DNA from: Antedon mediterranea
Lineage: Eukaryota; Animalia; Echinodermata
Length of the DNA: 64,000 nt
Direction of reading: 5' to 3'
Assembly (NCBI RefSeq): GCF_964355755.1
Contig: NC_092674.1
Span: forward strand, 1,364,001 to 1,428,000
The translations under genes were made by a program, and so were the position numbers. How positions within the stretch are numbered: position 1 is the stretch's first letter; each line of letters begins with the position of its first letter. The notes under the pieces were generated by a model that saw only the letters and a list, made by a program, of their open reading frames with translations, ran no database searches and was not told the origin of the DNA. Positions 13,264 to 61,584 of the stretch are shown here, piece by piece.

Positions 13264-16200
13264 CTATAGCTTTCTCTTTATGGCCTTTTGTTTCTCCTCG
13301 TCTATGATGTCTTGAACAAGTTTAGCAGCATCTTCGGCACAGCCCCATGACATGCTAACACCTCGTCCACCATGTCCATAATTATGAACAATCTACAAAA
13401 TACAAACATTATAATTCATTTACAACAAAACGTGAGGTGGCTTTCCAAAAAGCAAATTCGTTTGGTTTTATTAATTATTTCACAAAGTTAAGTAAAATAA
13501 AAAGGACCTATACTAGCAAACCTTGGTAAATTATTGTATTATGGAGACAATGATCTAAACGGGGCTTTACGGCTGAGTTTCCAAATGTGGTAAATAAATT
13601 TATAATATAAAGTATTTTTCAAGAAAACATTTCTAAACTAAAACCAATAACATATCAAAACTGGCAGTTTAAAAAAAGTACTGTTATATAAAAACTGACA
13701 TTACAGTGTTTCTATTTACTATGGGCCGGCTATAGTGAATAAAACCATAGAGGTAAAACAATCCATGATGAAACTTTGTACGTACCGGTACAATGTTACC
13801 ATCTATGTTGATGGTTTCTCGTTCAAGACGAACAGTTGGCCTGCCTGGTCGCAGTCCTACCCATTCATGATCTAATTCAGCGTGCTACGAAAAAATCATA
13901 TTTCTATTGTAAATGGGCGAATAAACTGCAACTTGCAGCCAACTGGGCTGAATTGTGCACTCCCCAGGGTCCCTTTGTGTCGAGAACTGCCACCAAATTT
14001 CACTAAAATGGTGACTCATTTGGTTACAAAATATTTTCATTGTCCTTTAATTGATTATGGGTGTGCCTTGAAGAAAGATATTCCTTGACTATGGGTCTTA
14101 ATTTCCAAGAAAAATAACTAAACAGAGATTACTAACAGATACACTTGGGAACATGTTTACAGCTCTTCTCCAAATTTCTTCCCTGTCCTCTTTATCGACT
14201 TTTAAATTCCAATTGTTCTTTTGATATTTTCCGCCAACTACAACTGTGTCTCTACTAGAAAGTGAATCAAACAAAAGTTAGAAAAACAAATTGTGTATAT
14301 TTATATATGAGAGGGAAGTCATGATTCGATCTTCATTTGATCATAAGCATGTTATTACTTATTTTAACGCCTTCCGCAGAATAGTCATCTGACTTTTCCA
14401 CCTCATCCGCTCTGCTTTTTCTCATGCTGTGAAGTTCTCCAGAGTTTCTGTCAGGTGCTATGTTCTTTATTTTCTGTAAGTTTTTATAAATGTTGTATGC
14501 ATAGTAGAAATTCTTCAATTATATCAATATTAGAATGTTGGGGATAACAGTGGCTTGTAGCCTGAATTGCACACAAGTGTTGATCAGCCTATCTAAGGAC
14601 GTCCATGCACACAAGTGTTGATCAGCCTATATAAAGACGTCCATGCACACAAGTGTTGATCAGCCTATCTAAGGACGTCCATGCACACAAGTGTTGATCA
14701 GCCTATCTAAAGACGTCCATGCACACAAGTGTTGATCAGCCTATCTAAGGACGTCCATGCACACAAGTGTTGATCAGCCTATCTAAGGACGTCCATGCAC
14801 ACAAGTGTTGATCAGCCTATCTAAAGACGTCCATGCACACAAGTGTTGATCAGCCTATCTAAGGACGTCCATGCACACAAGTGTTGATCAGCCTATCTAA
14901 GGACGTCCATGCACACAAGTGTTGATCAGCCTATCTAAGGACGTCCATGCACACAAGTGTTGATCAGCCTATCTAAAGACGTCCATGCACACAAGTGTTG
15001 ATCAGCCTATCTAAGGACGTCCATGCACACAAGTGTTGATCAGCCTATCTAAGGACGTCCATGCACACAAGTGTTGATCAGCCTATCTGAAGACGTCCAT
15101 GCACACAAGTGTTGATCAGCCTATCTAAAGACGTCCATGCACACAAGTGTTGATCAGCCTATCTAAGGACGTCCATGCACACAAGTGTTGATCAGCCTAT
15201 CTAAGGACGTCCATGCACATAAGTGTTGATCAGCCTATCTAAGGAAGTCCATGCACACAAGTGTTGATCAGCCTATCTAAGGACGTCCATGCACACAAGT
15301 GTTGATCACCCTATCTAAGGACGTCCATGTCAAAATTATTCTAATTCAGTTATTTTACTGATAGATTTAACCTGTTTATGCAATTATTTATCATATTTAT
15401 AAAATTTTTTTTATATATAATGTATTATTAATACTGTACACACCGTATTTATTTATAAACTCCGACATCAAAACAAACTAAAATAATGTAAAATCTAATA
15501 ATTTGTGTTGAGCAGCCAGTTAGCGGCGCTAATTCGTCTGTCCAATCAAAGAAATTGAAAACAAGGAACATTTAAGAATAACAACAATGTTTACCATGGT
15601 ATAATATGGAGAGATGAGCCATCATACTTAGGATCGATGTCAATTACAAAATGTTTCACCCACGGTGCCTTGACCTGAAAAAAAAAAAATTGATTGTCAT
15701 AAATTGAATAAAATAAAGTGTAGGCCTATGATTAGCAAATAGCAGTATTATAAATCTCAAACCCGTATAACCTGATCTCTGATTGGATAAACTGAATCTT
15801 AATGTGTAACTAACCCGTATAACCTGATCTCTGATTGGATAAACAGAATCTTAATTTGTAACTAACCCGTATAACCTGATCTCTGATTGGATAAACTGAA
15901 TCTTAATGTGTAACTAACCCGTATAACCTGATCTCTGATTGGATAAACAGAATCTTAATTTGTAACTAACCCGTAACCTGATCTCTGATTGGATAAATAG
16001 AATCTTAACTTGTAACTAACCCGTATAACCTGACCTCTGATTGGATAAACAGAATCTTAATTTGTAACTAACCCGTATAACCTGACCTCTGATTGGATAA
16101 ACAGAATCATCGTTCACTAGTTTGCCCGCTCCTAATCCAGAGCAATTCACTATGATATCATATTCACCAAATATCTAAAAAAAACATTTAAATAAATTAA

Positions 16201-19200
16201 TCTCTAAATTGTTATTCTCCATCTCCATAAAAGGGTCCTGTAAAAACAGAATTGTAAACTTCTTTATGCAGGATCCTTGCCATCAATTATATACTGTAAT
16301 TGTAAAGTTATAAACAATGACTAAATAAATGTGAATGAATGAATGAATTAGTCTATAGACACTATTTTCATTGACCACTCAAGCCCGTAGCCAGGATTTT
16401 ACAGGGGGTTCTTTTTTCCCAAAAAGGCCCCTCTTATGGGAATTACCTCCGGTGTAACCAGCTTATATGATTTAATATCAAACGATCAAAACACCAATGA
16501 TATTGGTCACCAGCCACAAGAGCACCCCTCTCCTAAGAGTTTCCTGCCCCAGGACCTTGGCCAAAAAAATTGGAAAAGATAGAGCACTACAGGGGCAGTC
16601 GCAGACTCGCAGGACTATTTTAAGAGAATTGCCCAAAGACTCCAGTGCTGTAGACAATGAGTATTTGAGTAAGAAAATTGTTAAATGATACCCCTACATG
16701 GTACTCTCGCACGTAAAATTCATAATAAACTGCACCTCTAGTTCAACGGAAATGTCACTCACTCTATAGTGCGCTAGCAAACAGAGGATCGTAGTATAAT
16801 GTTATTCGACCGTTAATAAAACATACGCGACTAACAATAGGCCTATAAGATAACATTTTTGTTTTCGTTCAATGCGAACGTCATATCACGGGGAAGTTCC
16901 CGATGAAGGTAGGCCTACTTCTGGTACGGTATTACATTCTAATAACTGTACTCAATTATAGTAAATTTATTAGCAATTAATAATTTTAAAAAGTTATGAA
17001 TGATGGGAAAATAACGCTATTGGTGTTGTTGGATTTGTCAGCAGCGTTTGATACTGTTGATCACCAAAGACTGATAACCCGTCTGAGAAATCGCATTGGC
17101 ATTAATGGTGTTGCTCTTAACTGGTTCCAGTCATATCTTACAGGAAGACGTCAGCTAGTCTGTATCAATGATGTATTCTCAGATGAAGCTTGCCTGGAAT
17201 ATGGTGTACCACAGGGGTCAGTAATTGGGCCTGGCCAGTTTTCCATTTATACGCTTCCCCTTGGTGACATTATTCGCAAACACAGTCTACATTTCCATTT
17301 CTATGCAGATGATACACAGATTTATGTGTCAGTAAATCCAGTGCAAAGGGATGTTGCTGCAGCAATCAGTAAGATGGAAGCCTGTATAGAAGATGTTCGC
17401 AATTGGATGACAACAAATTACCTAAAGTTGAATGATGGAAAGACAGAGTTTATTTTCGTCGGGTCTAAATGTAACATCTCCAAAATCAACATCACACATA
17501 TCAGAATCGGAAACTCTAACATCGCTCCCTCATCGGTGGTCCGGAATCTGGGAATCATGCTGGATAGTAATCTCACTATGGAAGCACAAATAACAACGGT
17601 ATCCAAAGCAGCATGCATATCGATTAGGAACCTTGGTCGTATTCGCGGTAATCTTAACAAGAAAACAGCTGAATTGATTGTACACTCATTTGTCACTTCT
17701 AAAATTGACATTGGTAATGCCTTGTTGCAAAATCTCAAATACAACGTTTGCAGCGCTTGCAAAATATGGCAGCTAGAATTGTAACTTATACAAAATCAAA
17801 CGCTCACATAACTCCTGTTCTGATGGATTTGCATTGGTTGCCTGTTCAACAACGTATTAAGTACAAACTTGCGTTGTTTGTATTTAAGATCCTAAATGAC
17901 AGTGCTCCTGCTTATTTATCTGACCTTGTGGATCGTTACGAATCATCCCGCAGAGACCTACGATCATTGTCACAAAACCTTCTTCAAGAGCGTAGAGCGA
18001 AAAATCAATGGGGTCTTTTTACGTTGCGGCCGCAAGTGTATGGAACAGCTTACCAGCAACAGTTAAATGCTCAACTAGTCTAAACAGTTTCAAGACCAAC
18101 CTAAAGACGTCGCTATTCGCTGATGTTCTCGCACGTTGTTAATGCACAAAGCGCCATGAACGCCACATGGGTGGAGGATACCGGCGCTATATAAGTTTTC
18201 ATTTATTATTATTATTATACAAAAAATATGAAGCTGCTGCTATAAATATATTGCGCAAAACGTTAAATTGTGTTATTTTCAATTAAATGCTAAATAAAGT
18301 CAGATTTTAAAACCACAATTTCAAAAATTCATTGTTTATGTATCCACTATAAACTTTAAAAAAGGGTTGTTTAAACCACACTCCAAAATAAAACAAAGAA
18401 AATTATGATATGACATTTGCAGAAGGAAGCAAACTTTGCTCTGCTACCGGTATAAGTACACGGTTCAAATTTCGGAACTTCCATAAATTAATACGGAAAT
18501 TCGGCCTAATATTTACGGACGTATGGAAGTGAAGATAAATAGGGTACTACACGCATCGGAAAAAAAACTATACGCACAATTATGATTTCGCCTAAAAATT
18601 GGCCTTAGATTATGGAAAATCTCCGGCAAAACGCAACAATTATGGACAAATCGATTATCAGCATTGGTAATATGCCGCCTAATATTTAAAAGGAATGAAT
18701 ATAAGCTATATTTTTGTTTTGTCCCAAAGTTCATATGTGAATGCTTGATCCATTAGAAGTAATCTGTGATAGTTTTTATTGCAATATAGGGTTGGTGAAA
18801 TCTGTCCACAATAGGTTACTTTTCTGTCCATAATAGCTTACTTTCTGTCCATAATAGGTTACTTTCTGTCCATAATAGGGACTAGAGGGCGCTGTTGTTT
18901 GTCCAAAATAGGTAACTTTCATAATTGGCTGTCCAAAATAGGTGACTTTTTTGTCCACAATAGGGGATTTTATTGCCAGTCCCTATTATGGACAGAAAGT
19001 AACCTATTATGGAGAGAAAGGTAACCTATTATGGACAGATTTCACCAACCCCGCTCTTTTATTGCTTGTATTATAACACAAGTTCATTTTCGATTTTCAG
19101 TAAATTACCAATGGTTTGTTTAAGGTCCACTGTAACCCTCACTATTCAATCAAAAATTATTATACTACCATTGTTGAAAAACGGATTGCGTGATGTCAAA

Positions 19201-22200
19201 ATGGATTGCGTGATGTCAAAATGGATTGCGTGATGTCAAAATGGATTGCGTGATGTCAAAATGGATTGCGTGATGTCAAAATGGATTGCGTGATGTCAAA
19301 ATGGATTGATTTAACAAAGATACGACCTTGTCTGGTATTTGTGCAGTGATGAAGCGGAGGATTGTTTTTGTAGCGTTCCATTTAAAATAAATTTTCTTGT
19401 GAAATATTTTGGTTGTGAAGGTCGCTAAATTTGTTGGCGCCAGACTTCTTTTACCAATTTTAACAATAAGCTAATAACAAAACATGGAACAATGATAAAA
19501 TGCCGTAAAACTCTGTAACTACTTTATGACTAAGTCTATCAAGGTCCGAGTTTGCTCAGCTACCGACGCGGTATAATAATTACCTGTTAATTCTGAAATT
19601 CGCCCTAATATGACGGACGTGTACGGAAATGAAGATAAAGTGGGTAAACTACACGGAAAAATAAAACTATACGCAAAACTATAATTTGGCCTTAAATTAT
19701 GGAAAAACGCAATAATGAACAAATTGACGACCCATAGGACGGGTTATTCCCGAACACAGTGTGTGTTGGCCTCCTTTCGTATACCTCTCATCAAGAGAGA
19801 GATACATCTCCCTGCTCTCGGTAAGAAAATGTGGAGTTATTTACATGTATTTGACTAATACAGTACAAATATAACAAAATATAGCAAAATAGTCAACAAA
19901 ATATTGATAATAAAATACAATCATTTTAAAGTTAATATTGTGCCTTAAAGGGGGTTATTTGATTGTCAATTGGCTGTGTTTACAAAGGGCTGCCACACAC
20001 GCTATGGCTATACCATATTATTTGGCTATACTAGAAGAGCAGCAACTGGAAAGATGACAGCACATGTTTTTCCACTGTATTTTAGTAACCAAAATGGTTG
20101 ACACTTTTCGGGGAAAAGAATCATCAAAGACAGAAGTGAAGAATCTCTTATTACATATTATTTAGGCCTACTATTAAATTTTTTTTTTTATTAACTATAT
20201 TTTTTTACATAAAAATTGATTTGTTTAATAAAAGAAACCATTTGGTTTAGCGACGTTAATTGCTGGTTTGAGGAACAGGATCGTGCAGGCGATCCGTAAA
20301 AATGATGGACTGATCGCTTTCGGAAATTCGCTTTTATTGTGTAAAAAGAGTGATGGTCACAGAGAGGAGACCTACGCAAGAAACATCAATATTAAGCAAG
20401 GAGTTCTTAATTAGAACTCCCTATGCAGTTAGGGTTAAAAACGTCATTTTTTAACCAAACCTGGAAAAAATTATTTACAAAGGATTTTTATCATCAAACT
20501 TAACATATAAGTCCCAGGGGTCACCAAAAAAAGTTCTAGTGATTTTCTCTATGGGGGAAGGAGTTATGACCTTTTATATAAAGGTCAAATCTATTTTTAG
20601 TAACGAGTTAGTACTTCATTAACCACACAGTGTAGATGCTTAATTTTAGTCTCAAATTGTTCGCAATGTACAATTTCCTATTTGCAATAATGGAATATTT
20701 TTCTAAAAAATTACCAGCAATGCTATTTCTGACCTTTGACCTTTCTTGACCGGAAGTTTCATAGCTACATAACTATTTGACCTAGAGAGTGGGTTTTGGT
20801 CTTAATTTGTTTATAATGTACAACTTTATATTTGCAGTAATGACACATTTTTCTATAAAGCAAGTAGAAATACCATTTATTGACCGTTGAACCCAATTAA
20901 CCAATATTATTCAATTATTATTAATAATATAGTTCAAGTATTAACACCGCCACCACATGGCTGTACATAGGCTAAACTTTTTGACCAATCAGGAAGCGCC
21001 ATCTAGCAGGATACATTTCAAATGTTTGTTAGAAAGAGTGCAGCAACAGCATATCAAATCGAAAAACAGTGGGCAGGTGTATGGAGTGACATAGCAATTG
21101 AACAGACCCTTATGAGACATTCAAAATCACAGGGCGGTTTGTCTATGGGCCGGATGAGGGGTACTTCAACTACAAGCGGAGCAACATACCTGCCTTGGGT
21201 ACTGACTTTGAATCATGTTTCTGAGATCCATCACCTACTAGAAGACAAAGGAAATACTCCAAACCTGCCAAACAAAGAATGCTCACAAAGTGCAATGAAA
21301 ATTGACACATCTACCTTTGGTCAAGTACTCAATTGGTTCAATGAACGTTCTCCATTTGAAGATCCACAGAATAGTAAAATCATCGTTTCACTGTCGACAG
21401 GTTTATCCACTGAACGAAGTAAATTGTGACAATTGCTACAATATAGGTCTCACCATACAGAAACAAGTAGATGCTAAACCTCTGAATCACAGAATGTCTA
21501 CACGAAACATTAAACCATTATCATGTCTACAAAAATGTGTGAAAGTTGAAGAAAAGAATGCATATGTCAACAATACAACCCTATTTACAAGACTTGTCCT
21601 TCTCAGTGAACGTGATAACTTTTCACTACGTGAAACATTAAAATATGAACTGACACCTCTACCAACATCCCTGTATGATACCTCTGAATTTTTACAGAAG
21701 CCTGACAAGGCGTCACTTGGGAACTATCTCAAAACCATATCTGAGTCAGCCAGTGTTCAAACATCAACAATCCAACCCAGTGTGTACGTTATAGATGGAG
21801 GATGGTTGATACATCAGATTCCATGGACTCCAAATTAAAAATTCCTAGATATAATTAAATCCTACAGTAATTATATCAAAAAGAATTTCCAGGCAGGAAC
21901 ACTGTAGAAGTCATTTTTTACACTTACACACATGCATCAATAAAAGACCATGAACACAAACGCAGAACAAAGATTAAATGTGCAAATTATAAGGTGTCAA
22001 CAAACCAAAGATGTATTGTCCAAAAGACACAGTTTCTTTCAAATTTGAAAAATAAGCAAGAACTAATTAACTTATTAGGATCGACTTTAGCCGAGGATGG
22101 AGTTAATGTTTACCATGCTTATTCAGCAGATGCTGACATGCTCATAGTTGAACGTGCAATACAATCAACCGAACTAAGTTCCAATATAGTGGTTGTAGCA

Positions 22201-25200
22201 GAGGACGCGGACATTTTGGTTATGCTGGTTCACTGGAATAAGGGAAATAACATCTATCTTAAAACAAAATTAACTATGTATAATGTGTTAGAAATACAAG
22301 AGAAACTACCTAAGACTGTTCTTAAGTATATAATATTAATTCATGCATTCAGTGGATGTGATAGTACATCTTCTGTGTTTGGCAAGGGAAAAGTTAAACT
22401 AGCATCAAAGCTTGAAAAAATCAGTAATCTAGAGAAAATTGATGTATTTTATTCAGACACCCCCACAAATGAGGGGATACACAAAGCAGGCATCTCATTG
22501 ATGCAACTAATGTATGGTGCTGATGAAGACATGACAACATTAAGAGTACGTATGTACTCCAAAATGGTAGCGAGGGGTAGCTTAACAATTGAGCGTCACT
22601 CTCCAACTGAAGGTGCCATCCTACAGCACTCATTGAGGGTATGGTTTCAAGTACTGGACTGGAGGAAATTAGCACATCATGAAATTGATTCCACCAAATA
22701 CGGTTCAATGGTGAACTAACACCAGTCCCAACATTAGACGAATATGCTCCTATGTCACTCTTAAAGTTTATCTGTTGTAACTGTAAATCTGGAAATGGTA
22801 ATGAGATGTGTACAACGAATAGATGTAATTGTAGAAAGAGTAAGCTTAAATGCTTAAGTGCATGTGGGTCATGTATGGGCAAATGTGAAAATGGCTCATG
22901 TAACTTTTCATTCATTTTTCTGATGAAGACACCTAGGCTTTACTGACACAGTAATAATCTGGCTAGTCTCAACAACAAAAAAATCATCAGCTTTCGTCTA
23001 AGTGACGGTGTATGTTTTAAAGAAAGTTGATTATTTGGTAAAAATAATATCATTGTACGTCTATAATTACATGTAGATTTTAAACTATTACCAATAATAA
23101 GGAATCTTTAGTAAGTAAACGACTGGGAGCAATATCCAAGTTTCGGTGTTATTACATGATGAATAATCCCCTCGCCCACCCTCAAAAACATTTAAAATGT
23201 GATTTTTTTCTCAAGTTTGGTGCTCTTTTCACATATAAGGTTAAAAGTTAATAAAACCATACTTCTTGTCACAATTGTACATAATGCTCCATTATACCAA
23301 ATAGGAACATACATGTTCTTAACAATTTGAGACCAATATGAAGATTATGCGACCAGTAGTTATTGAGATATAATAAGCTGAGGTCAAAGGTCAAAACGTC
23401 AGAAATATCATTTCTGGTCACTTTTGGACAAAATGTTTCATTATGAAGAACAGGAATATGTATCTTCTAAACAATTTAAGACCAAAACCAAGTCTCCATG
23501 ATTAATGGTTACCAAGATACAAGCATGTCAAGTTGTAAGCGGCCATTTTGAAAATGGCGCCAAAAAAAAGTTTCCCATGGGCCAAATCCTTAGAACTTTT
23601 TTTTGGTGGTATTTTAGATTCATATAAAGGTTTTCCCATAAAAATCGCTTTGTAAATAATGTTTTCTAGGTTTGGTGCTGATTTTCCCTAACTTAAAGTG
23701 GCGAACGTCCCCTACGAAAAGCAACACGTGCGCAGTGTAACTAAAATGAACTACCTTTTTTTGCGGGGCTAATACTAAAGTCAGAGACGCCAAATGATGT
23801 AAAATCACGAATTTTCTTTGCCTGGCTGACCAATGCAGGGAATGGTCCGGCATTAACCACCATGTGCCTGGCTGACCAATGCAGGGAATGGTTCAGCATT
23901 GACCACCATGTGCCTGGCTGACCAATGCAGGCAATGGTCCAGCATTGACATTGAGACTATTCAGAAATATAGTATAGGAATATCCCTGGTATAACGTCAT
24001 TTCATACTAACCTCTGACATGGAATTGAGTCTTCTTTTCACAAGATTGCCACCATTTTCTTTAAATCTAAAAGATGTTGATCAATTTTTCAATTCAACCA
24101 GAAACGATTAAATCAGATTTTTTTTAATGCATAGAATTTTCTTAAAGTCGCAAAATGTCAACATTCATTTTGGAAACAGTTGTTTGGGCTGGTACAAGAT
24201 TTGGGAGAGTTTTGGGTCTGCAGCAATAATGTGCAACTTTGTTCATTCTCGTGCTCCCTGACACATACTATGAACAAGTTATTTTGTAAAATGTAGGCAT
24301 AACTCACTTATTCAACAACCATGGTAAGTATGTTCTACCATGCACTTGAAATGATGTCAAAAGCCATCCATTGCTAAAAAGAAAAAATTAAAAAATTATT
24401 GAAACACTCACACTCACAGTGCAGTTGATTTTACTAAGTACGAAACTTTAATAAATGGTACAATAGTATAGGCCTACAGGCCAATTTAAACAGACGAGCG
24501 ATAAACATACAATGTTATTCCTTATGATGACCATTTACACACAACATTAACGCGTAGCGGACGGGTGGTACAGATTTACTTGGACAAGCTACGCGGTTTT
24601 CCGATTACGTTACCGCTCACCTGTATAAATTGGCCTGGCATTTACACAATAGTTTATTTTGTTAGATATTTTTTTCACCTGTAGTTTGGAAAAAATGCAG
24701 TCATCTCTTTCGCATCAAGCTTTCTGCAGCCATAAAACTTTTCAGAACAGTCGTCCAACTACAAAGAGAGCACACTGTAAAATAATTCCACTTTTTAGAA
24801 TTAAATTCAAATTATTGTGTTGTGGAGAAATTGCATATTCTCACCTGTTCTTGCTTATTGCTGAGATAATAACCCGATAATATTGTCACACTGGCCGCTA
24901 CTGACTCTTTACTCCGTGTAATTGATTCCAGATATTTTCCAGTCCGTAAAATCCAGTCACTTAAAGAAAAGAGTTCTTCGGTTATTCGTGGAAAATAAAA
25001 ACTTGTTGTGATCAAAAGAAGTCAATTATGTTTATGTACATTTTAACTGTACAGAGAGATTTAGATAAAAGTAAAAATAAGAAAAAGTATTTTTTTTTTC
25101 TTTAAATGATTATACTCTTTAAGTGATAGCCCTGCCTATGTACGTTTATATAATTTCAGGCTCGAAAATGTCTTGTTTATTTAAAGATGTATTGTCCACC

Positions 25201-25996
25201 AAAAATCATGAAAAATAAAGATTTATAAATCAGATTTTTTAATAGCCTAATTTGCAGTTTTAATGAAGCTTTCACTTCGATAGAAATGCAATTTTTTTCA
25301 TTAAGGAAAAAAAAGTTTTAAAAAAAATTTATTTAACCAAAAACCCATAGTCAATTTGACTATTGTATGCGTTAGACAGTTTTTTTCAGGTAAATTCAAG
25401 ATTCAAGATTCAAGAAATTTTATTTGTCCATAAAAATGGAAATTCACTTTGCTTGGTAGATTAAAACAACAATATTGCAACAATTTAAAAACGTGCAGTA
25501 TAATAACAGATTAAAAATACAAGATAAAAAGTTAAAAATACTGTTAAAAATGTAAAACTATTAGAAATTGCATTAACGTCTTACATTAGAATTAAAAATA
25601 TGAATGCTATTTACAACGAAGGATTTTTTAGTTCTACAAAGATTTGCTCTTGGAAGTTGTAGCCTAATGCCTGATCTATTAATAAATAATTTCCAATTTC
25701 TGGTCAAAGTGAACAATTATGAACAAATTAAAATATTATTTTTTTCAGGGGGACAATTATATCTTGAATCAGCATGAATACCTCATCATTTGATTATCTT
25801 GGTGAGATCCACCACCTTCCAGCGTAGGTTCCCACAATCCTGCAGCACCATCACTTGTAGTATCTGGTGACAACTTGTCAGCAATGATAGTGACATGTGT
25901 ATTGGGGTTCTGTTGTTGGATGACAATGGCGGTAGATAGCCCTATAATACCGCAGCCAACCACACATACTTTGCCATACTCTTTGTTTATACTCAT
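13264..25996 (-). CDS. D-amino-acid oxidase / D-aspartate oxidase family flavoenzyme, 10 coding exons
   Basis: Exons ~25996-25782 ([14 protein letters not shown] motif, [10 protein letters not shown]), 24959-24845, 24758-24679, 24373-24308, 24066-24012, 16174-16073 ([17 protein letters not shown]), 15674-15595 (VKAPWVKHF), 14254-14137, 13884-13786 (WVGLRP), 13392-13264 (HNYGHGG..WGCA, ends KRKL*); GT-AG throughout. DAO versus DDO not resolved. Confidence 0.93.
14569..15329. repeat. 38-bp minisatellite, 20 copies (gcacacaagtgttgatcagcctatctaaggacgtccat)
   Basis: Near-identical head-to-tail units in an oxidase intron. Confidence 0.97.
15760..16108 (-). repeat. 52-bp minisatellite spanning an oxidase exon/intron junction, 7 donor copies
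   Basis: Unit = 36 nt exon tail gattctgtttatccaatcagaggtcaggttatacgg + 16 nt intron head gttagttacaaattaa. Confidence 0.95.
16996..18218 (+). mobile_element. 5'-truncated L2-type LINE, frameshifted
   Basis: [44 protein letters not shown]; 3' end gcgctatataag followed by an (att)n tail. Confidence 0.93.
18788..19051. mobile_element. MITE with ~30-bp terminal inverted repeats and internal subrepeats
   Basis: gggttggtgaaatctgtccacaataggttac ... gtaacctattatggacagatttcaccaaccc. Confidence 0.85.
19181..19308. repeat. 20-bp tandem repeat (atggattgcgtgatgtcaaa), ~6 copies
   Basis: Directly visible. Confidence 0.95.
20430..23690 (+). mobile_element. Academ-type DNA transposon, internally deleted and pseudogenised
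   Basis: TAG...CTA termini with long imperfect TIRs (accaaacctggaaaaaattatttacaaag / ctttgtaaataatgttttctaggtttggt); broken ORF 21022-22946 with [42 protein letters not shown] (XPG-like) and a C-terminal Cys cluster. Confidence 0.85.
23819..23950. repeat. 46-bp tandem repeat, ~3 copies
   Basis: tgcctggctgaccaatgcagggaatggtcc(g/a)gcatt repeated. Confidence 0.9.
25185..25764. mobile_element. TTAA-flanked non-autonomous DNA element (Kolobok-like termini)
   Basis: ttaa|agatgtattgtcc ... ggacaattatatct|tgaa; related left end at ~49745. Confidence 0.6.
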
Positions 25997-37365: not shown

Positions 37366-37389
37366 AGGTAGGCTTGCGCATTTTTTCCT

Positions 37390-39826: not shown

Positions 39827-39908
39827 TGAATATTATATGAAATATATTATATAATACATCGTTTTTTAAAAATAGTAAAAAATGTTAAAATAGATCAAAA
39901 GAACAGTC

Positions 39909-40045
39909 GCTTGCGTTGCGTCTACGTGTAGTTGCGTTGCGTCTACGTGTAGTTGCGTTGCGTCTACGTGTAGTTGCGTTGCGTCTACGTGTAGTTGTGT
40001 TGCGTCTACGTGTAGTTGCGTTGCGTCTACGTGTAGTTGCGTTGT
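39909..40045. repeat. 21-bp tandem repeat (gttgcgttgcgtctacgtgta) expanded inside a MITE-B arm
   Basis: ~6 copies followed by the TIR agtgggaaccaagcttta. Confidence 0.9.
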
Positions 40046-44200: not shown

Positions 44201-47063
44201 TTACAACATACTTACATCTTCAATACATGCTCCTGAAAAACCTATTCTTTTTGCTACATCTATTGCTACTTCTTTTGATAATCCTAGGAATAATACAAGT
44301 GTGCAAAGTGTTAAATTCTACCCTACATTTCCATTGGACTCTAATTTCAAATTATTTACTAATCAGCAGAATGCAGAGAGGGATGAAAACATAGCTTAAT
44401 ATCTGATTGAATGTCAGAATGAATATTAGTAAATACTGTAGATGCAACAGCCTACCTTCATTGATATCAATTCCTTGTTTAACAATAGAATCTGGACTTT
44501 CTTGAGCTATTTCTTCAATATTAACTCCTCCTTCTGAACTTGCAATAATTACGGGACCCTACAATAGCAAATAGATATACTGTAATGTTAACTTTTATTA
44601 CAGCTAGAAGATGAAATGTAGATTTACACCAACTATATTATAAAATAGAAGATCTTGAAAAACATTTAAAAGTAGATGAGAATAATGTTCTGAAAGATTA
44701 TGAATGTAGTCTATAAACAATCAAACATAGGAACTCAACATTTACAACTCAAACCTACCATATATGATCTATTTAATGTTAGGTGTGAATGCATACTTAC
44801 CATATATGATCTATCTAATGTTAGGTGTGAATGCATACTTACCATATATGATCTATCTAATGTTAGGTGTGAATGCATACTTACCATATATGATCTATTT
44901 AATGTTAGGTGTGAATGCATACTTACCATATATGATCTATTTAATGTTAGGTGTGAATGCATACTTACCATATATGATCTATTTAATGTTAGGTGTGAAT
45001 GCATACTTACCATATATGATCTATCTAATGTTAGGTGTGAATGCATACTTACCATATATGATCTATTTAATGTTAGGTGTGAATGCATACTTACCATATA
45101 TGACCTATCTAATGTTAGGTGTGAATGCATACTTACCATATATGACCTATTTAATGTTAGGTGTGAATGCATACTTACCATATATGATCTATCTAATGTT
45201 AGGTGTGAATGCATACTTACCATATATGATCTATCTAATGTTAGGTGTGAATGCATACTTACCATATATGATCTATCTAATGTTAGGTGTGAATGCATAC
45301 TTACCATATATGATCTATCTAATGTTATTGCAAAGTAATATTCACGTCTTGAATACATTCGTTCACACACTAAAACCTGAAATAACAAATAAACTATTAT
45401 ATATTAGCTATCACTGTAGATGAATTATTTACAGAAATTATACAGAGATTTACTACTTACTACTACTTTTAATAACTTACAGAATTGCATGGCCTGCCAA
45501 TAGCTCCGGTTTGCTTCGTTATTAACTTGTTTCCAATCATCTGAGATGCTAATTCACGTACTTCTGTTGGGCTACACAAAGATTATTTAATAATAACATC
45601 TTCAAAATATTTTTTAGAGTTGGAAAATATAAATCACTATTGGATTTAATTTTGTAATTCCAGAAATACCAATTAACTCATTGTTGTAGTATTGATTAAA
45701 AAAATGTTGTATAGGTATTATGAACAAAAATACATACGAGAAAGCTAATTTAACACCTCCTTTAAGACCACTCTCAAAGTAACCTTTGCCCCTTCCACCA
45801 GCCAGTACTTGTGCTTTGACCACTACATCATTCCCTCCTGTACAAAATAAAAAAATACACATAAAGTTGCAGATCTTAAATACTGTAGATATATTTATTT
45901 ATTTTCATAACTACGCCGCTTCTAGAGCTCTGTCTACTACACTATCAAACTTTATGTGATAAAAAATGTCATGTCATATCACTACCATGTAAACATACCA
46001 CTATCATGTAAACATATCACTATCATACTTGGGCACATCATTTTTTTTTGTAACACTAGTTTGATAGTGTAAACAGAGCTTTACAATATAATTTTGACAC
46101 CAAACATCGTAAACCTTCTTACCAAGATCTGTTGCTGCTTGAAATGCCTCATCTGGTGTCATAGCAACCTTTGACCCAGGGATTGAGACACCTGCTTCTT
46201 GCAGTAGGTTGAAACTTAGGTACTCATGAAGCGATAAATGTCTACGCTGCTGTTGTCCACACAGAAACCCATTACCAATGGCTGCAGCGACCTAGGAAAG
46301 ACAAAGTAAAATGTACAAACGATATAAATTCAATGTCAACTGAATGATTACTCAACAAGAATATGTTTGGTCTATCATCCCTGGTCTATTGCTAATTTTT
46401 TTTTCTAATATTAACATTAATTTTAAAGAAATTTATTTAATTAATAATAATATTAATAAATCCAAAGGCAAATTACTGACAAAATTCAGTGGCTGGATCT
46501 CAATGGAGATACAAAAAAAAGCTAGGCCTAAATCAAAACGATAAAGTAAACAGCCAGAAAAGTTAGCAGAGCTTTCGGGCAACACTGGCCTACTAGTACT
46601 ATAGACTAGGCCTAGCCCTTTATCAGAAATTAATAAAAATAAATAATAAATTAATGTGATAAAAATATAAAATAGATAGTAGGCCTATATTGTTTGTCAT
46701 CACTATTTCAATAAATAGAACTTGAGCCTACCTAATACTGGCTGGTTGTTGCGTGTCCAAATGTGCACTTTCTTAACTTATGTCATAATGACAGGCTAGG
46801 CCTAGGCCTCCCTACGCACTTTCTACTTCTCGCGACCGGAGCGAATCCCGTTGTCAGCCAGCTACGATTTGCGGTCATATTAATTTAGGTTAGTATGCCT
46901 AGGCCTAGACACTATTTTCACTAAATTTTGTAAAAATAAAATGCAAGAATATTTCCAAAATAATCCTATAATCAGTAAATCATAATCTTACCTTTGTATG
47001 ATGCTGTAATCCCTGTTTTGCAGCAATCAATCTGCTCCCGAGTCGACATATTGAAGAAGCCAT
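41215..47063 (-). CDS. SUCLA2: Succinate-CoA ligase [ADP-forming] beta subunit, mitochondrial, 13 coding exons
   Basis: Exons ~47063-46992 (transit peptide), 46291-46123 (LSLHEY), 45837-45738 ([12 protein letters not shown]), 45571-45481, 45376-45305 ([13 protein letters not shown]), 44558-44456 (GGVNIEE), 44282-44215, 43881-43785 (EINPL), 43426-43265 ([10 protein letters not shown]), 42906-42764 ([19 protein letters not shown]), 42406-42286 ([10 protein letters not shown]), 41937-41849, 41289-41215 ([17 protein letters not shown]). The C-terminal extension resembles SUCLA2 rather than SUCLG2. Confidence 0.95.
43513..43650. mobile_element. MITE family A copy
   Basis: Both TIRs visible, opposite orientation to the 37124 copy. 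Confidence 0.85.
44756..45327 (-). repeat. 42-bp minisatellite spanning the SUCLA2 exon 5/intron junction, 14 donor copies
   Basis: Unit = 23 nt exon tail taacattagatagatcatatatg + 19 nt intron head gtaagtatgcattcacacc. Confidence 0.97.
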
Positions 47064-47390
47064 TTTGAATGTTAAGAATGTTTTATCCTCATTCTATAAC
47101 TTTTAAATGTTAACTGTTTATTTCAGCTAATAAAAAAATATAATACTTTACTTATATATAAAAAAAAACCTAATAACATTTTTCAAGTTTAATTAGTTGT
47201 GTATTCAATATTAGAAAAATACAATTTAGAGCAATAAATGATTCATAATTTCAAAGCTAGTTTAAACTTTCAACTCTATGTTTATTTCCGGTCGCCAATT
47301 ACAAATTCCAGGTACCGAAATTAATTGTCTTCGACTTCTTTTTGTCATGTAAATAAGCACATTTCGTCAGTATTCTGAGTTGTATGAGGT
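47064..47390. promoter_or_regulatory. Probable bidirectional promoter between SUCLA2 and the PP2A B'' gene
   Basis: Head-to-head geometry; candidate plus-strand non-coding exon ending gag|gtagat at 47388; YY1-like gccatttt over the SUCLA2 ATG. Inferred. Confidence 0.5.
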
Positions 47391-48292
47391 AGATAAGTAT
47401 TCTATTAAAAACCACGCATTATAAGATTTTAAAAATAATGTGTCTGTAAAATTTATGCCTATTTTTATATCGAGGCCCACGTCGTTGACAATTTTGTTGT
47501 TGACTGTCTGTCTCATCATAAGCTCAACTCCATCAGACGTTCTCTCTGTTGACTGTCAAAAATGAGGAATTGATGTAGGCCTAGAGGCTAAACCATGAGT
47601 AATAATACGTCGGGGGAGGGCTAATACATTTAGGCCTACTTGTAGCCATGAAGACAGTAGCTCGACCTATAGTATTTGGTTATCATTATGAATACTGATG
47701 AGTGATGTTGAGATGATGTGAAAATTAAATAAAAATAAATTTCATTTTATTTTAATGATTTACACTACAGTATTAATAAATATTATATTTTAGGCTATAT
47801 TAGGCCTATTGCTATATATTTATAAATTTTCTTGCAGGTTTACAAAAATGGCTCATTATTATTGTTAATGAATAATTAATTTCATTTTTAATATTGATAG
47901 TATATATAATAAATAATATATTAATTTAATACGTATCATGCCATGGCAATACTCATTCATTTGGTTAATTTTGTTTTTATTTTAATTTTTAATATTTCCA
48001 ATGCCTTGCCATGTTCTTTATAAAGTATGCTCAGTTACTGATAAGTGTTATATTGGCAATGTGTATAAAATTATACTTCTAATTCTAAATACTAATGATT
48101 CTTTTATTTAACTTGAACTTTTCTATTAATATTATTGTTTCTTTTTAAGGAAGTGCACTTGTTGTTTACCATTGTAAACTTATATTGAATCAATGTTATA
48201 GTACAAACAAAATTAAATTTTATTTTTTCAGATGATTGCCAAAAATTGGTTTTAATGTTGTGTTTTTCAATCATGAGGTAGAAACAAAAATC

Positions 48293-51200
48293 ATGGGAAA
48301 ATTAAAGCCACTTCTACGTCTAAAAATCGATGAACTATTTCTACGGTGGTTGAGTGAAGCGGACACGCAAGAAACCTTGCGTGAAAACCTATCACTCATC
48401 AAAAAGGGAGAAAACATAGACTACATTCCGTCGTCAGCATTTCAGTATAAGAGCCATGGTAGCCCTGCATCACCCTTACTCAGGGTCTCATCACCAACAA
48501 CTCCTCCTTGTTCACCAATTCCAAACAGTACTCCAAGTCCTCGGAGACGAAGCACTAACAAACTGTCAACATCATTATCCAAGTCACTCACTGCTAAGGT
48601 AAGTAACAAACCACACATTGTATTAATTCTAGTATAGTAATAACCTAACATGATGGTATGAAATTAATACTTATTTTATTAATGCTGCAACAAATCTATG
48701 TATTGAAAATGAAAGATGATTGTTGTGCTGTTTACATCCAATCTTGTGTTCATAGAAAATTATTAAAACAGTATTTTGTTTAAATATTAGACTGACTAAT
48801 TTGAAGGAAATAATTGTAACCCCTAACATAATAATAGAACATTCCAAAATATTTGACCAATCATTAGACAGTATTTAGTGACTTAATTCAATATAACTAA
48901 TGTAATTTACTAATAGCTCATTTTCTTGAATCGTATTAAATACATAGGAATTTATATAATTATTACTTTGTTCAACCCTAGATAGTTTATTTGGCACTAG
49001 ATGTTGCATACTCTGGTATACAGTACAATAGTGCCACACATTTGTGAAATTCAAGCTTATTAATTAAAGTTAGTAAGCATTTAATGATTGTTGAGTTATT
49101 TGCATTCGTTGATATAAATAAGATATTAAGTTTTCGTGCTAAGTGCTAAGATTAAACTTGCTTCGTCTTTTCAGGCTTGACCCTAAAGAGTTTGATATTG
49201 CTCTTTAATTGGCATGATAGGAATTTTACTAGCTTGCAGGCATGTTCTAATCTAGCTCAAATTCCTCAGGCGGCGGTCTTACTTTAAAACAGTTTATATT
49301 TATCACCTGCCACAATATTAAACACATAAACGACCAAGTAAATCATTTATTGTAAAAGATGTTCTGTTTATGCTTGTATAAATAAAAGATATTTGACATT
49401 TTTAGGATTTCAAGAGAAATGATATTTGATAATGTAATCCATGCTCCATTCCCTACAAATTAAATTCAAGCTAAATTATGACACAAAATCACCAATATTA
49501 AATTATTATTATGCTATCTGAGTATAATCCCACCACTAATTTTTTTTCTCTAAATTTCATACTCAGGTCCCCCTGTGGTCTCCCTACTTGACCATACGGA
49601 CATTTTTTTTTCTTTTTGTAAGATTATTTTGGTAAACTAAATATCGAAAAATGGTTTTTCCTTTTTTCTTGGAAAAACCAGTCACTGCAACATTTTGTTT
49701 GTTCTCTCATAGATACTGTACTTAAATAAACGTTATGTTGCTAGTTAAAGATGTATTGTTTCCTGTTTCCACGGAGACAACTTTCAATTACAGTATTTGT
49801 CACATGACCCAAAAAGTTGATTGAGGTCAAAGTGATTAACATTCTTACTCACTAACATTACCACATACTGTACTGATCCTACACTCAAATAGCCTCCAAT
49901 AGTATTAATAATAATAATAATCACTGAACATTATGCACCATTTTTATTACAATTTTTTTTTTTAATATAACACATTAGAGACACTGTTTAATTTTCTATT
50001 TATTCAATACTATACTTTGATTAAAATATTGTTAGCAGAATTTCTGGGGATAATTTTATGACACAATAAAGATAATAACAATAATTTGATATCGTGCAAT
50101 ATTAGATAATTGACTGTCTGTCACTGTTATTATTTGATAAATTAGGCTACCACATGCGGAGACAACTGTTAGTTAAAATCTATTAATGACCCGATTTTAA
50201 ATAGACTATGAAATGAAAGATGATGATGTTACAAATGGTAACCAGATCTAATCACCGACTTCTGTCATAGGCCTCTCATCATGCTTGCTTCCTTATAAGG
50301 GCATGCCATCTAGGCCTATACTGTAGCTTTAGCAAGCAGAGTGGATCAGTCCAAATGGTAAATTTTAAGGCCATTGAGATCTTATGAATCAAGTGAAACA
50401 GCTGGTACATGAGGCCTACAAAGAGGCATACTGTTAGTATCAGAAGGGAGGACATACTTCAATCATTGATATTTTGTTTTTTTATTGTTGTTGAATCAAA
50501 AGTGAATTTGTATTATATTGATGGTGACTACATGGGTACTGCATCAATTAACGTTAACTGTTAGCAACAATGTTTATAATTTTCCAGAGAAGCAAAGACG
50601 ATTTTGTTGATTTTTTTCTGCAATAGAAAGCTTTTCAATTGATTTGATGTCATCAGCGATGATTGATGTTTTTATTTGTGGTTTTGTACAATGTTGGACT
50701 CCAATCCAGGATGTAATTTGTCATGTATGTAAGGTGATGAAATGATTGACACATGGTGTGACTGTTTAGATTCTAAGGAATCACCAATCAATGATTGCAT
50801 ACGCTGTTTATTAGTTGTATGAACTCTTACAATACAAACACTAAATGTAGCTGTTACTCAAAGAACTTGAAATATTTTTTGCAGGCATTTTGTGTCAAAG
50901 ACTAAAGCCCACTTTGTGTTTCATGTTTCAATTTTGTCCTACACATCGTTATTGCATAAACTAATTGTATCAACGTCATTATGCATTTTAATACCCTACA
51001 AACATGTCAACTGTATTGCTGTTATTCTTATAGAATTTTAAAGTTTTTTAATTTGTTTTGTCATTAACATTGTTTTTCTTGATTGTTAATTGTGGTTTTT
51101 GCTGCAACCGGACTATTAGTTATTGAACAATAAATAGTCGTTTTCAACGTGTAATTGTGGTGTTTTGTAAATGCCAGCCATTCTTAATATGCAGACATGT

Positions 51201-54200: not shown

Positions 54201-56220
54201 ACCTCATATTTATTACTACAGTATCATTCATTACAGGCATGTGGCTGCCCTAAATACTGGAGGATGGCCCTCTATCACGCAGCTGGAGGAAAGGATGATG
54301 TACCCCTTACACAAGAAATGTTTGTAACAATGTGGCAGAGGTTTGTAATACATTCTTTAATGTACAGTATATTCATTTTTTCAACCAATTGCAGCACCTT
54401 TCGATTGCATAAAGTTAAGCTCTGTCTATATTATCAAACTAGTTTGACAAAATAGTGTGATGTGCCCAAATATAGTAGTGATATGACATCACCACATCCA
54501 TATATGGGCACATCACATTTTTTGTTACATAAAGTTTGATAGTATAGACAGAGCTTTAGAAACTATTTTATTATTTATTTATTAATTATCAATCAACATC
54601 ATCTTTCTGAATCATCTTTTATTGAGTCTGAACTTAACATTGAAATTTGTTTTTATATTTCTTTTTCCCATTTGTGCATTTAAAAGTTGACCTCTAATTG
54701 ACCTTATCAGTTTCTGAGCCATCTTTTATATTTATTGCATCTGAACTTAACATTATTTTTTGTAATTTCTCTTACAGAGTGATTTCTGAATGCCATGACG
54801 ATAGTTCAAGATTATTTCGTCTTTTAGTCAAACCCAAGTGCAATTACATATCAGCTGAAGACTGGTACCCAATGATTCAGGTAAATATTTAAGAATACCC
54901 CTTGATACCGGTCTCAATTACATATCAGCTGAGGACTGGTACCCAATGATTCAGGTAAATATTTAAGAATACCCCTTGATACCGGTCTCAATTACATATC
55001 AGCTGAGGACTGGTACCCAATGATTCAGGTAAATATTTAAGAATACCCCTTGATACCGGTCTCAATTACATATCAGCTGAGGACTGGTACCCAATGATTC
55101 AGGTAAAGAACACCCCTTGATACCGGTCTCAATTACATATCAGCTGATGACTGGTACCCAATGATTCAGGTAAAGAATACCCCTTGATACCGGTCTCAAT
55201 TACATATCAGCTGAGGACTGGTACCCAATGATTCAGGTAAATATTTAAGAATACCCCTTGATACCGGTCTCAATTACATATCAGCTGAGGACTGGTACCC
55301 AATGATTCAGGTAAATATTTAAGAAAACCCCTTGATACCGGTCTCAATTACATATCAGCTGAGGACTGGTACCCAATGATTCAGGTAAAGAACACCCCTT
55401 GATACTGGTCTCAATTCAATCACCCCATCGGTAAACAACTCCTTCCAGTTTGTTTGAACCGACCTTTGACCAAAGTTGTTTTAGTGGTCTGTAAAGGAGA
55501 CTTCATCATTTTTGTCACAGAAGTCTGAATGTGGTTTTAGTTTAAAAGTCATTTAACGTCACTTAAGTGACCAATGTAATGTCATTACCATTGTCATCAT
55601 CATTTATAATCATCATAATATTTATCATCTTTTATTCTGTTCGTTATCATCAATTACCATTCCATTTTTTGTGAATTTTAAAGAATCAAAAGTACATAAG
55701 TGTAGAGTAATAAGTTACTACCGTATATCCTCTGGTATAATCCCACGCCTCTAGAACATGAATTAAATTACTACCGTATATCCTCTGGTATAATCCCACG
55801 CCTCTAGAACATGAATTAAATTACTACCGTATATCCTCTGGTATAATCCCACGCCTCTAGAACATGAATTAAATTACTACCGTATATCCTCTGGTATAAT
55901 CCCACGCCTCTAGAACATGAAGTATACCAGGGAAAGCCTGGTTCAATAAAAAAATTATTGGTAAAGCATTTCTTGTAAAAACTCATATGAACTATCTAGA
56001 GAGTGGCCTACATCCAGACCAAAAGTGAATACTGGGACTATACCCACCCAGGGATATGCCTGTTTTTGAAATCAGACATAAAGTAGGGGGTGGGATTATA
56101 CCTGAGGATATACGGTATTAGCCAATCATTTGCTTTGTTTTGCAGGATGTGGTAAATTCTCATCCTGGATTGTCATTCCTGCAGGATGCTCCTGAATTCC
56201 ATTCTCGTTATATCCACACG
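48293..56220 (+). CDS. PPP2R3: PP2A regulatory subunit B'' (PR72/PR130/PR70 family), 5' part; continues past the window
   Basis: Exons 48293-48598 (LKIDELFLRWLSE), 53566-53745 (VPQFYFPYGRP), 54237-54340 (ACGCPKYWR), 54778-54880 (CHDDSSRLF..WYPMIQ), 56146-56220 (DVVNSHPGLSFLQDAPEFHSRYIHT); phases consistent. Confidence 0.92.
51171..51449 (+). CDS. Candidate alternative first coding exon of the PP2A B'' gene (93 codons)
   Basis: ATG, 93 open codons, phase-0 donor aag|gtaggc compatible with the acceptor at 53566. Confidence 0.45.
53800..53990 (+). mobile_element. tRNA-derived SINE remnant
   Basis: A-box-like gtggcttggtggtta and B-box-like gggtcaagtcc; no intact cloverleaf. Confidence 0.5.
54416..54558. 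mobile_element. MITE family A copy
   Basis: Both TIRs visible. Confidence 0.85.
54841..55416 (+). repeat. 74/67-bp minisatellite spanning a PP2A B'' exon/intron junction, 8 donor copies
   Basis: Unit = 40 nt exon tail caattacatatcagctgaRgactggtacccaatgattcag + intron head gtaaa(tatttaa)gaataccccttgataccggtct. Confidence 0.97.
55715..56117. mobile_element. MITE (TIR taccgtatatcctc..gtataatcccac) with its left end tandemly repeated 4 x 53 bp
   Basis: Right TIR gtgggattatacctgaggatatacggta at 56090-56117; left TIR units at 55715, 55768, 55821, 55874. Confidence 0.85.
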
Positions 56221-56979: not shown

Positions 56980-58038
56980 TTAAACTTTGACCTTTCCACC
57001 ATTGTTACCGCCCTCATGGACATCCGTATCCTCTGCTTGTTTGTCATCTTCAGGATGAATGGTCTCTGTTGGCAAATCTGTTGAAAGCTCAATGATCACT
57101 TCAACCACATCTTCTTCAGCTATCTCTTCCTCTGCTATCTCTTCCTCTGTTTCTTCCACTACCTCCTCGATGACCTCTTCAACGACTTCTTCAACAATTT
57201 CTTCAACCATTCCTTCCAGAGCTTCCTCCACTGCCGCTTCAACAGCTTCTTTTACTTGGTCAACGACCTCATCAACGATTCTTTCCTCGATCTCTTCTAC
57301 CATTGTCGTGGCATCAGTGCTTGAGATTTCAATTTCTTCAGTTTCTTCTGTAGTGGATACCTGATCAATCTCTTCCTCTTCTAATTGTGTAGCTGTTTCT
57401 GGTTTTGTTTCTTCACTGTCTGATGTACTTAACAGCAAAGATGTGCGAGGGCGAATCATTTTGTCTTGTGTGGCATCTTCCTGCTCTTCTTCAGATGATG
57501 ACTCTGAGCTAGATTCTGGTGATGCAATTGTAGCTGTCACATCTTCTGTGTCAACTTCTTCCGACGACTCTTCCGATGATGATGATTCTGAGCTAGATTC
57601 TGTTGCTGCAATTGTAGCTGCTGTAGCATCCTTTGTTTCAATCTCCTCTGACTCTTCTGAGCTAGACTCTGTTGATGTGATTGCTGCTGTACCTTCCTTT
57701 GTTTCAATCTCCTCTGACTCTTCTGAGCTAGATTCTGTTGATGTGATTGCTGCTGTACCTTCCTTTGTGTCAATCTCCTCTACCTCTTCCTCTGAGCTTG
57801 ATTCCATTGGTGCATTTGTTGAGTCTTCTACCTCTAGGACCACGGTGACCATTTCTTCCACTTCAGTCATTGTCACTACTTGTTCATTGTGTTCGATTTC
57901 AAGCTCGTCGCCTTGTCCTTCCACTATTGCTAGCGTTTCATATTCGTCTGCAGCTAATGTTTCACCAGTTGGTACAGGTAAGCCTCTTGCCACAAACAAC
58001 AGGCAATTGCTGACGACTATTAACCAAAATGTATTCAT
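56980..58038 (-). CDS. Nested antisense gene: secreted, highly acidic Glu/Ser/Thr-rich protein (352 aa)
   Basis: Acceptor ttttgtgcag at 58049, ATG at 58038, signal peptide MNTFWLIVVSNCLLFVARG, 22-aa internal repeats with SSSEE, single coding exon; AATAAA at ~56555 and ~56385. Confidence 0.8.
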   Translation of the reverse strand: MNTFWLIVVSNCLLFVARGLPVPTGETLAADEYETLAIVEGQGDELEIEHNEQVVTMTEVEEMVTVVLEVEDSTNAPMESSSEEEVEEIDTKEGTAAITSTESSSEESEEIETKEGTAAITSTESSSEESEEIETKDATAATIAATESSSESSSSEESSEEVDTEDVTATIASPESSSESSSEEEQEDATQDKMIRPRTSLLLSTSDSEETKPETATQLEEEEIDQVSTTEETEEIEISSTDATTMVEEIEERIVDEVVDQVKEAVEAAVEEALEGMVEEIVEEVVEEVIEEVVEETEEEIAEEEIAEEDVVEVIIELSTDLPTETIHPEDDKQAEDTDVHEGGNNGGKVKV

Positions 58039-60027: not shown

Positions 60028-60725
60028 TACACTGTGTACATACAGTGGCGTAACGGCTATGAGCACTTACTGGCTACACCCAGGGACACTGTGTACATAC
60101 AGTGGCGTAACTGCTATGAGCACTTACTGGCTACACCCATGTACACTGTGTACATACAGTGGCGTAACTGCTATGAGCACTTACTGGCTACACCCAGGTA
60201 CACTGTGTACATATACAGTGGCGTAACTGCTATGAGCACTTACTGGCTACACCCAGGTACACTGTGTACATACAGTGGCGTAACTGCTATGAGCACTTAC
60301 TGGCTACACCCAGGTACACTGTGTACATATACAGTGGCGTAACTGCTGTGAGCACTTACTGGCTACACCCAGGTACACTGTGTACATATACAGTGGCGTA
60401 ACTGCTATGAGCACTTACTGGCTACACCCAGGTACACTGTGTACATATACAGTGGCGTAACTGCTATGAGCACTTACTGGCTACACCCAGGTACACTGTG
60501 TACATATACAGTGGCGTAACTGCTATGAGCACTTACTGGCTACACCCAGGTACACTGTGTACATATACAGTGGCGTAACTGCTATGAGCACTTACTGGCT
60601 ACACCCAGGTACACTGTGTACATATACAGTGGCGTAACTGCTATGAGCACTTACTGGCTACACCCAGGTACACTGTGTACATACAGTGGCGTAACTGCTA
60701 TGAGCACTTACTGGCTACACCCAGG
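60028..60725. repeat. 57/59-bp minisatellite, 12 copies, covering flank plus a CAGTGGCGTA element terminus
   Basis: Unit tacactgtgtacat(at)acagtggcgtaactgctatgagcacttactggctacacccagg. Confidence 0.95.
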
Positions 60726-61584
60726 GGCCCTGGAGCTTATGGGAGCCCCTGAGCAGTGCCCAGAGAAAAAAAAAAGCATTAACTTATGACGAAAAAATTT
60801 CATTATGGGGAAATCATAATAAAATCATGTGTTAAAGCTTCAAATTATTAACTTGTGTCGATTGTGTGTTGATAAATAGGTAAATGTTAAATCAATTTAG
60901 GAGAACGTTTTTAGTCATCCTCCAAAAAAAATGGGTGTAGACCTGCCTGCAGGCTTCTGTATTAAGTTACCTTTAAACAGTGGCTACTGTATACCTACAC
61001 TTTACAGTATTTATTTACAGTAATTCAAATACTAGGATATCCCTTGAATGATATCAGATAAAAGTAAAACAAGGGTAACTCCAAATTAAGAGTTGGAAGA
61101 AAGTTTGACTAATTGAAGAAAAATTTGATAAATTTTCAAACTCATCAGATTCTTGAACAATGAAAATAAAACTTTAAATTCTCGATTGTGTTCTGTCTAA
61201 TAGTTGTACTTGTATACCCTTTTATTTTTTTTAATTGCTGCGAAAAGATTTTTTTAGATGCTACACTTTTCCTTGACAACTAAATAATTTAATACTAAAG
61301 AAACTAACACTGTAGTGGTAATGTTATATACATGTTGTAGCAGGGAATTGGTTGCAGTTCAACTATTACACAAAAAATATTGAAAAGAAAACAGCCTTAT
61401 TTTTTAGTCAAAAGTTTAGTAGTATATTTATCTAATTTTTTTTTCAAGCAAAGTCATTAAAAAAATATATTAATACAAACAAAAATAAATACAAAATACA
61501 GCATTTAAATAAATATCTTATTATTTACTACTACTATTACTAAGCATTCAAATATAAATATCTTATAATAATATAGTAATATAA

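Follow-up and report, generated by a model that had tools for sequence, protein, structure and literature searches.

This locus raises the question why three minisatellites, located in three unrelated genes of the feather star (crinoid) Antedon mediterranea, each repeat the end of a coding exon together with the 5' splice site and the head of the following intron, and whether such repeats contribute anything to the function of their host genes. We analyzed the whole 64-kb stretch of DNA that contains them (hereinafter, the window), in which four genes were modelled by hand.

Genes of the window and structure of the donor-spanning arrays

The gene models, from which untranslated exons were left out, yield a set of 47 donors and 46 acceptors. 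The genes and the arrays embedded in them are as follows.

13264..25996, minus strand: D-amino-acid/D-aspartate oxidase-like gene, 10 coding exons, 352 aa (hand model; open frame, Pfam DAO)
16073-16174, minus strand: oxidase exon 6
15595-15674, minus strand: oxidase exon 7
27851-37366, plus strand: adhesion-GPCR-like gene, named by eye, 22 exons (the last two tentative), 860 aa
41215..47063, minus strand: SUCLA2 (ADP-forming succinyl-CoA ligase beta), 13 exons, 453 aa
48293..56220, plus strand: PP2A regulatory subunit B'' gene, coding exons 1-5, residues 1-256 of 568, with the remainder past the window
15760..16108, minus strand: oxidase exon-6 donor array, TRF 52 bp x6.8, 36 exon and 16 intron bases per unit, 7 donor copies
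44756..45327, minus strand: SUCLA2 exon-5 donor array, TRF 42 bp x13.6, 23 exon and 19 intron bases per unit, 14 donor copies
54841..55416, plus strand: PP2A B'' exon-4 donor array, 74/67-bp units with 40 exon and 34/27 intron bases, 8 donor copies

The SUCLA2 model is 100% identical to the NCBI protein XP_071949423.1, which carries the Antedon mediterranea label, and the PP2A B'' part shows 0 mismatches over 256 aa to XP_071949420.1; a protein search with PP2A exon 1 returned a 100% identical NCBI protein followed by sea-star and sea-urchin proteins. These two genes are arranged head to head (47063-48293), with starts within 1.2 kb of each other, which suggests a shared promoter. In the adhesion-GPCR-like gene, a CUB-like region, a Ser/Thr repeat, a GPS-like exon and seven hydrophobic segments are recognizable by eye, and the first intron is of the GC-AG type. 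Elsewhere in the window, an 842-codon open frame on the minus strand (3920-6445) appears transposase-like by eye, with weak coiled-coil matches below the cut-off in Pfam, and fragments of LINE-like reverse transcriptases, together with a disrupted transposon-like stretch, were noted by eye at 7261-9093, 11100-11650, 16990-18140, 38400-39800 and 20990-22900; two of these stretches lie within the 7.8-kb intron 5 of the oxidase gene. An Rfam search of the whole 64 kb gave 0 matches.

The three arrays reported in the first-pass annotation were all recovered by TRF, and each is built of an exon tail, the GT donor and an intron head. The units within an array are 94-98% similar by TRF, and the GT splice signal is kept in the 7, 14 and 8 donor copies of the oxidase, SUCLA2 and PP2A arrays, respectively. 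The first donors, at 16072 (oxidase), 45304 (SUCLA2) and 54881 (PP2A), rank between the 51st and 87th percentile of the 47 donors of the window. All three are phase 0, as had been pointed out, though this is uninformative: 25 of the 47 donors are phase 0, the probability of drawing three such donors is 0.15, and a phase bias was accordingly discarded.

In the PP2A array, the start of the unit and the intron sequence after the last head share the 5-base microhomology CAATT, which fits what slippage or microhomology repair would leave behind. A 4-base microhomology is possible in the oxidase array, provided that a 10-base indel distinguishes the last copy. Both the oxidase and the SUCLA2 arrays finish with a copy that ends in a different GT-starting intron head, shorter and weaker in the oxidase; in SUCLA2 the head that follows the last copy is unrelated, and the origin of this array is unreadable for that reason. 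Derivation of this SUCLA2 head as an inverted copy of the exon was considered and dropped, the match being weak (shuffle P=0.037 before allowing for several tries), and an 8-base stretch common to the oxidase and SUCLA2 sequences after the last copies, spotted by eye, was taken as chance. Divergence from the working exon tail affects 5 of the 6 later copies in the oxidase, including one non-synonymous difference, 7 of 13 in SUCLA2 and 7 of 7 in PP2A, where all later copies differ from the first at one position.

The pattern, which the first-pass annotation did not know to have been described as a general one, is already documented in the literature. Tandem-duplicated exon-intron boundaries were named 'mirages' in amphioxus globin genes and Adh3 (Ebner et al., PMC3087553); according to that study, they occur at donors as well as at acceptors, splicing is normal, and the copies evolve in concert except for those at the boundaries, which are excluded; the mechanism was considered unclear. 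The globin cases are BflGb6, which is on the acceptor side, and BflGb9; troponin C and PGBD5 were added later (PMC3902484), and mirages were called possibly a general phenomenon (PMC3087553, PMC3902484). The feather star arrays share with mirages a unit that crosses an exon-intron boundary of the host gene, copies that keep the splice signal, and units that are alike internally with altered end copies. They differ in coming from a crinoid echinoderm, in being exclusively donor-side in the window, and in affecting three unrelated genes.

Donor-spanning repeats are also documented in five human genes: in addition to the 37-bp VNTR in intron 7 of F7, for which upstream-first donor choice has been demonstrated (Borensztajn et al., PMC1557585), that paper lists CBS intron 13, 6-16 intron 2, lamin B2 and PDGF. 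Only the most upstream donor is used in F7, lamin B2 and PDGF, and two more are used in CBS and 6-16 (PMC1557585). As in the F7-type repeats, the first unit of each feather star array spans the exon-intron boundary and the donor is repeated into the intron. The F7 copies, however, include only 4 exon bases, compared to 23-40 in the feather star, and polymorphism and donor use were measured in the human case, whereas for the feather star there is one indirect RNA contig for one gene. A survey of internal tandem repeats that alter human gene structure states that introns or cryptic sites can arise from boundary minisatellites (De Grassi and Ciccarelli, PMC2812944); the feather star units are similarly placed at exon-intron boundaries but have produced no new intron, the arrays being intronic and the proteins unchanged. 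Donor-spanning arrays are not mentioned in the accessible portion of PMC10078293. Our literature search, which covered few subscription papers, found no echinoderm mirage, no genome-wide comparison of donors with acceptors, and no paper on the human UPF3A VNTR, a candidate parallel that was therefore not used.

Placement of the arrays relative to splice junctions

Filtering of the 76 TRF rows for the window by period (18-100), score (100 or more) and copy number (~3.5 or more), with redundant calls removed, left 15 arrays; 21 are retained if copy number is not restricted. Under a null model in which the founder unit of each array is placed at random, the overlap of 3 of the 15 arrays with donors compares with 0.32 expected (P=0.0034). 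The probability is 0.0098 for 3 of 21 arrays, 0.0068 with placement in gene bodies only, and 0.0084 under a GC-weighted null without exonic or acceptor placements, for which the expectation is 0.44. Of the non-randomness originally proposed for donor-centred arrays, a modest excess within the window holds (P 0.003-0.01), but it is post hoc and shrinks to P=0.022-0.058 when either junction is counted; given that a reader picked this window post hoc from ~250,000, the P values establish no rule. A base-coverage null shows no excess (3 of 47 donors vs 9.6% of random gene-body positions, P=0.84) and is itself biased by array length because a working donor can sit only in the end copy. The extension of the arrays into introns is inherent in any duplication that crosses a donor and adds no evidence.

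One possible source of the excess is a mutational process focused on the 3' ends of exons, such as polymerase pausing, R-loops or nucleosome edges, under which the arrays would still be functionless. The count itself, 3 of 15 arrays against 0.32-0.46 expected, points in this direction, and the donor arrays have 30-40% GC compared to a mean of 43%, unlike the mostly GC-rich other arrays, so that base composition does not account for them; the idea that the excess stems from GC-biased birth was rejected given that it lifts the expectation only to 0.44. Conversely, the signal comes from a single window chosen post hoc, with P between 0.02 and 0.06 for either junction and no excess under the length-biased base-coverage null, and we regard such a mutational focus as an unlikely, albeit reasonable, explanation.

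None of the 46 acceptors is crossed by an array, in agreement with the first-pass annotation, though this is expected by chance (P of zero 0.64-0.73). A second copy of the 24 junction bases within 400 bases was found for three of the 47 donors and for none of the 46 acceptors (Fisher P=0.24), and no decayed or older junction copies (at least 19 of 24 bases) were detected at the 44 other donors or the 46 acceptors. This contrast is the basis for the proposal that arrays form anywhere and selection removes those spanning acceptors, leaving the donor-side ones, which upstream-first choice makes harmless. The asymmetry is not significant (P 0.13-0.24) and was rejected as a signal, and an acceptor-side mirage with normal splicing, BflGb6, is in print (PMC3087553). 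Furthermore, the donor expectation is hardly raised, to 0.44, when acceptor and exonic placements are disallowed, and such a filter therefore cannot generate an excess over intron interiors. We consider selective purging of this kind, which had been offered as a possible cause, to be very improbable.

The remaining 12 of the 15 arrays lie away from donors, indicating that minisatellite birth is common here and is not confined to donors. At least two of them (39911 and 55711) are built from the ends of dispersed or inverted-repeat elements: the 21-bp array at 39911-40048 runs into the end of a dispersed element, and the 53-bp unit of the array at 55711-55921 matches an inverted repeat at 56087-56120. 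A 31-bp x15 array (35778-36239) fills most of an intron of the adhesion-GPCR-like gene: 48 bases separate it from the donor and 64 from the next acceptor, and neither splice site is copied. A 38-bp x20 array with 97% alike units (14568-15329) is wholly contained in intron 7 of the oxidase, 265 bases from the donor. In addition, a family of inverted-repeat elements of ~150 bases is represented at 45925-46083 and in more than 10 other places in the window, and is very abundant in all four sequencing runs compared below.

A fourth putative donor array noted in the first-pass annotation falls within intron 5 of the PP2A gene, an intron that also contains a nested open frame.

60028..60748, minus strand: fourth array, TRF 60028-60725, 59 bp x12 (59/57 bp units), in PP2A intron 5
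56983-58038, minus strand: nested single-ORF gene, 352 aa, within PP2A intron 5

This case is not confirmed. No coding exon is overlapped by the array, which lies 3.8 kb from the closest modelled splice junction of either kind, and the PP2A exon that follows intron 5 is absent from the window. PP2A is encoded on the plus strand, whereas the GTAAGT of the array units is on the minus strand, and in shuffled sequence at least one of 13 non-donor units acquires a GTRAGT motif by chance in 35% of trials. The first GTAAGT comes after a T-run, an AG and 37 further bases (60712-60748), and an acceptor-like site is present just upstream of the start of the nested ORF, which makes an untranslated exon at the fourth array possible; the array might then be a donor array of such an exon, a reading that we hold to be rather unlikely. 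A possible resemblance of the array to a transposon end was set aside; no second copy exists within the window. The nested ORF has a signal-peptide-like start, is very rich in Glu, Ser and Thr, and includes a 66-bp coding repeat (57586-57789). It matched no Pfam family, and an exact look-up in the protein collection came back empty; our guess is that it encodes a secreted acidic matrix protein.

Donor choice and read coverage at the arrays

Homologous proteins show no gap at the first donor in any of the three genes. In particular, the end of oxidase exon 6 and the start of exon 7 fall on the adjacent residues 204 and 205 of mammalian DAO chains (the second of these matches being weak, E 0.35), Pfam EF-hand_13 positions 1-28 and then 29-53 are aligned across the PP2A array, and the Pfam positions across the SUCLA2 array are likewise continuous. 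The NCBI models use the first donor as well, in the single SUCLA2 cluster member and in both same-species PP2A isoforms. Use of later donors is predicted to introduce stops for all 6 later copies in the oxidase and all 7 in PP2A, and in-frame 14-residue inserts without stops for all 13 in SUCLA2. The in-frame SUCLA2 array is a natural test of upstream-first donor choice that is free of the decay of alternative products. No SUCLA2 protein with an insert is present among the 4 matches from 5802 database candidates, the best of which covers the exon only, and this is weak evidence.

Nine sequencing runs cover part of the SUCLA2 region, all as contigs, and four were compared over 45250-47890. No run is recorded as RNA; run X5, from the same species and from another sample and study, was guessed to be RNA, a guess backed by its own spliced contig. 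This 1057-base contig maps in exon-sized pieces, three of which are listed and correspond to exons 2-4; the exon-5 piece, which is not listed, is deduced from a bin depth of 49.7, equivalent to 36 bases at the contig depth of 122.9. The contig continues for 575 letters past the end of exon 5, which equals exons 6-10 (573) plus GT, and this GT is common to exon 11 and intron 10, a natural branch or break point. With one to three additional array units, the contig would stop in the middle of an exon. The contig therefore fits a main SUCLA2 transcript that uses the first donor, with the caveat that this is one run guessed to be RNA, in contigs of which rare forms are invisible. The surplus over the SUCLA2 array edge in X5 is ~0.2 of the exon depth and may represent unspliced RNA, DNA or a later-donor isoform.

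In run X1, which may derive from the source sample, the break in the unique contig is at 45298. This position is 30 bases into the SUCLA2 repeat, as expected for 31-letter words, and a surplus of ~18-fold relative to the unique depth is seen over the array edge. Runs X6 and X8, two samples from one study, represent another organism that is ~8% diverged, with 89 and 87 substitutions, respectively, over 1091 neighbouring bases. The break in X6 coincides with that in X1 to the base and the surplus is ~7-fold in both X6 and X8, although the X8 piece there is unlisted. Since summed depth is no copy number, we read the surplus only as presence of the array in the reads; a repeat with the same outer edge as the SUCLA2 array is likely to exist in this relative. 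These observations also bear on the possibility that the arrays are assembly artefacts. The reads cover the edge of the SUCLA2 array only and X1 might be the source sample itself, but the depth at the array edge is elevated in X1 and in two samples of another species, the break recurs in X1 and X6, and the units carry patterned variants, making an artefact hardly credible.

The first-pass annotation also listed a copy-number-tunable splicing or U1-loading device as a possible cause; such a device might load U1, or it might route transcripts into decay or towards longer proteins. The internal donors match the working one exactly or almost exactly, the SUCLA2 unit keeps the reading frame and has no stop, the SUCLA2 array is seemingly common to a relative, and extra donors are used in human 6-16 and CBS (PMC1557585). 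Nevertheless, the outputs predicted for the three genes have nothing in common, being stops in two of them and an in-frame insert in the third. The copies diverge, the RNA contig fits the first donor and no insert-containing protein appears among the database matches noted above. A splicing device of this kind thus seems to us most improbable.

Possible origin and persistence of the donor arrays

The feather star arrays are real, are further examples of a known repeat type, and are most likely neutral. We think it probable that all three are mirage-type minisatellites that persist as neutral passengers and are ignored by splicing through use of the first donor; given that this donor is likely the one used, the arrays are probably harmless. 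Under this neutral reading, an array would start as a local duplication of 42-74 bases, produced through either slippage or the repair of a break where a few bases match (5 in PP2A, 4 in the oxidase if the 10-base indel is allowed, none in SUCLA2). As the geometry of the arrays indicates, a duplication across a donor keeps the first copy intact and lets the extra copies fall in the intron. Unequal exchange, to which the variant patterns point, would then expand and homogenize the units while the end copies diverge. The most upstream donor would continue to be used, as the contig indicates indirectly for SUCLA2, as is presumed for the oxidase and PP2A, and in line with the human F7 experiments; leakage to later donors would result in early stops in the oxidase and PP2A. 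Finally, an array-spanning deletion presumably could not remove an array that is anchored on a needed exon end, and donor arrays would therefore outlast free intronic arrays.

Neutrality alone does not explain the donor excess, which survives every founder-unit null, and function would also account for the apparent retention of the SUCLA2 array in the ~8% diverged relative. Longer retention, together with the picking of a striking window, is the likely explanation of the modest excess. A bolder extension is that exon ends are hot spots of minisatellite birth or retention, roughly ten-fold over intron interiors, in this crinoid and in other marine invertebrates, with donor arrays that outlast speciation and are homogenized with the working exon; this remains a tentative proposal that we deem less than likely.

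The value of these observations lies in the question whether exon ends are over-represented among minisatellites genome-wide, and if so, whether by birth or by retention, at which a single window can only hint. If the donor excess held genome-wide, repeat birth or survival would be tied to exon ends, and the tandem-duplication route to intron gain could be tested in a chromosome-scale genome. Should exon ends indeed prove to be hot spots, mirages would represent a general way in which genomes change in connection with splicing, and a lasting supply of in-frame insertions and new introns.
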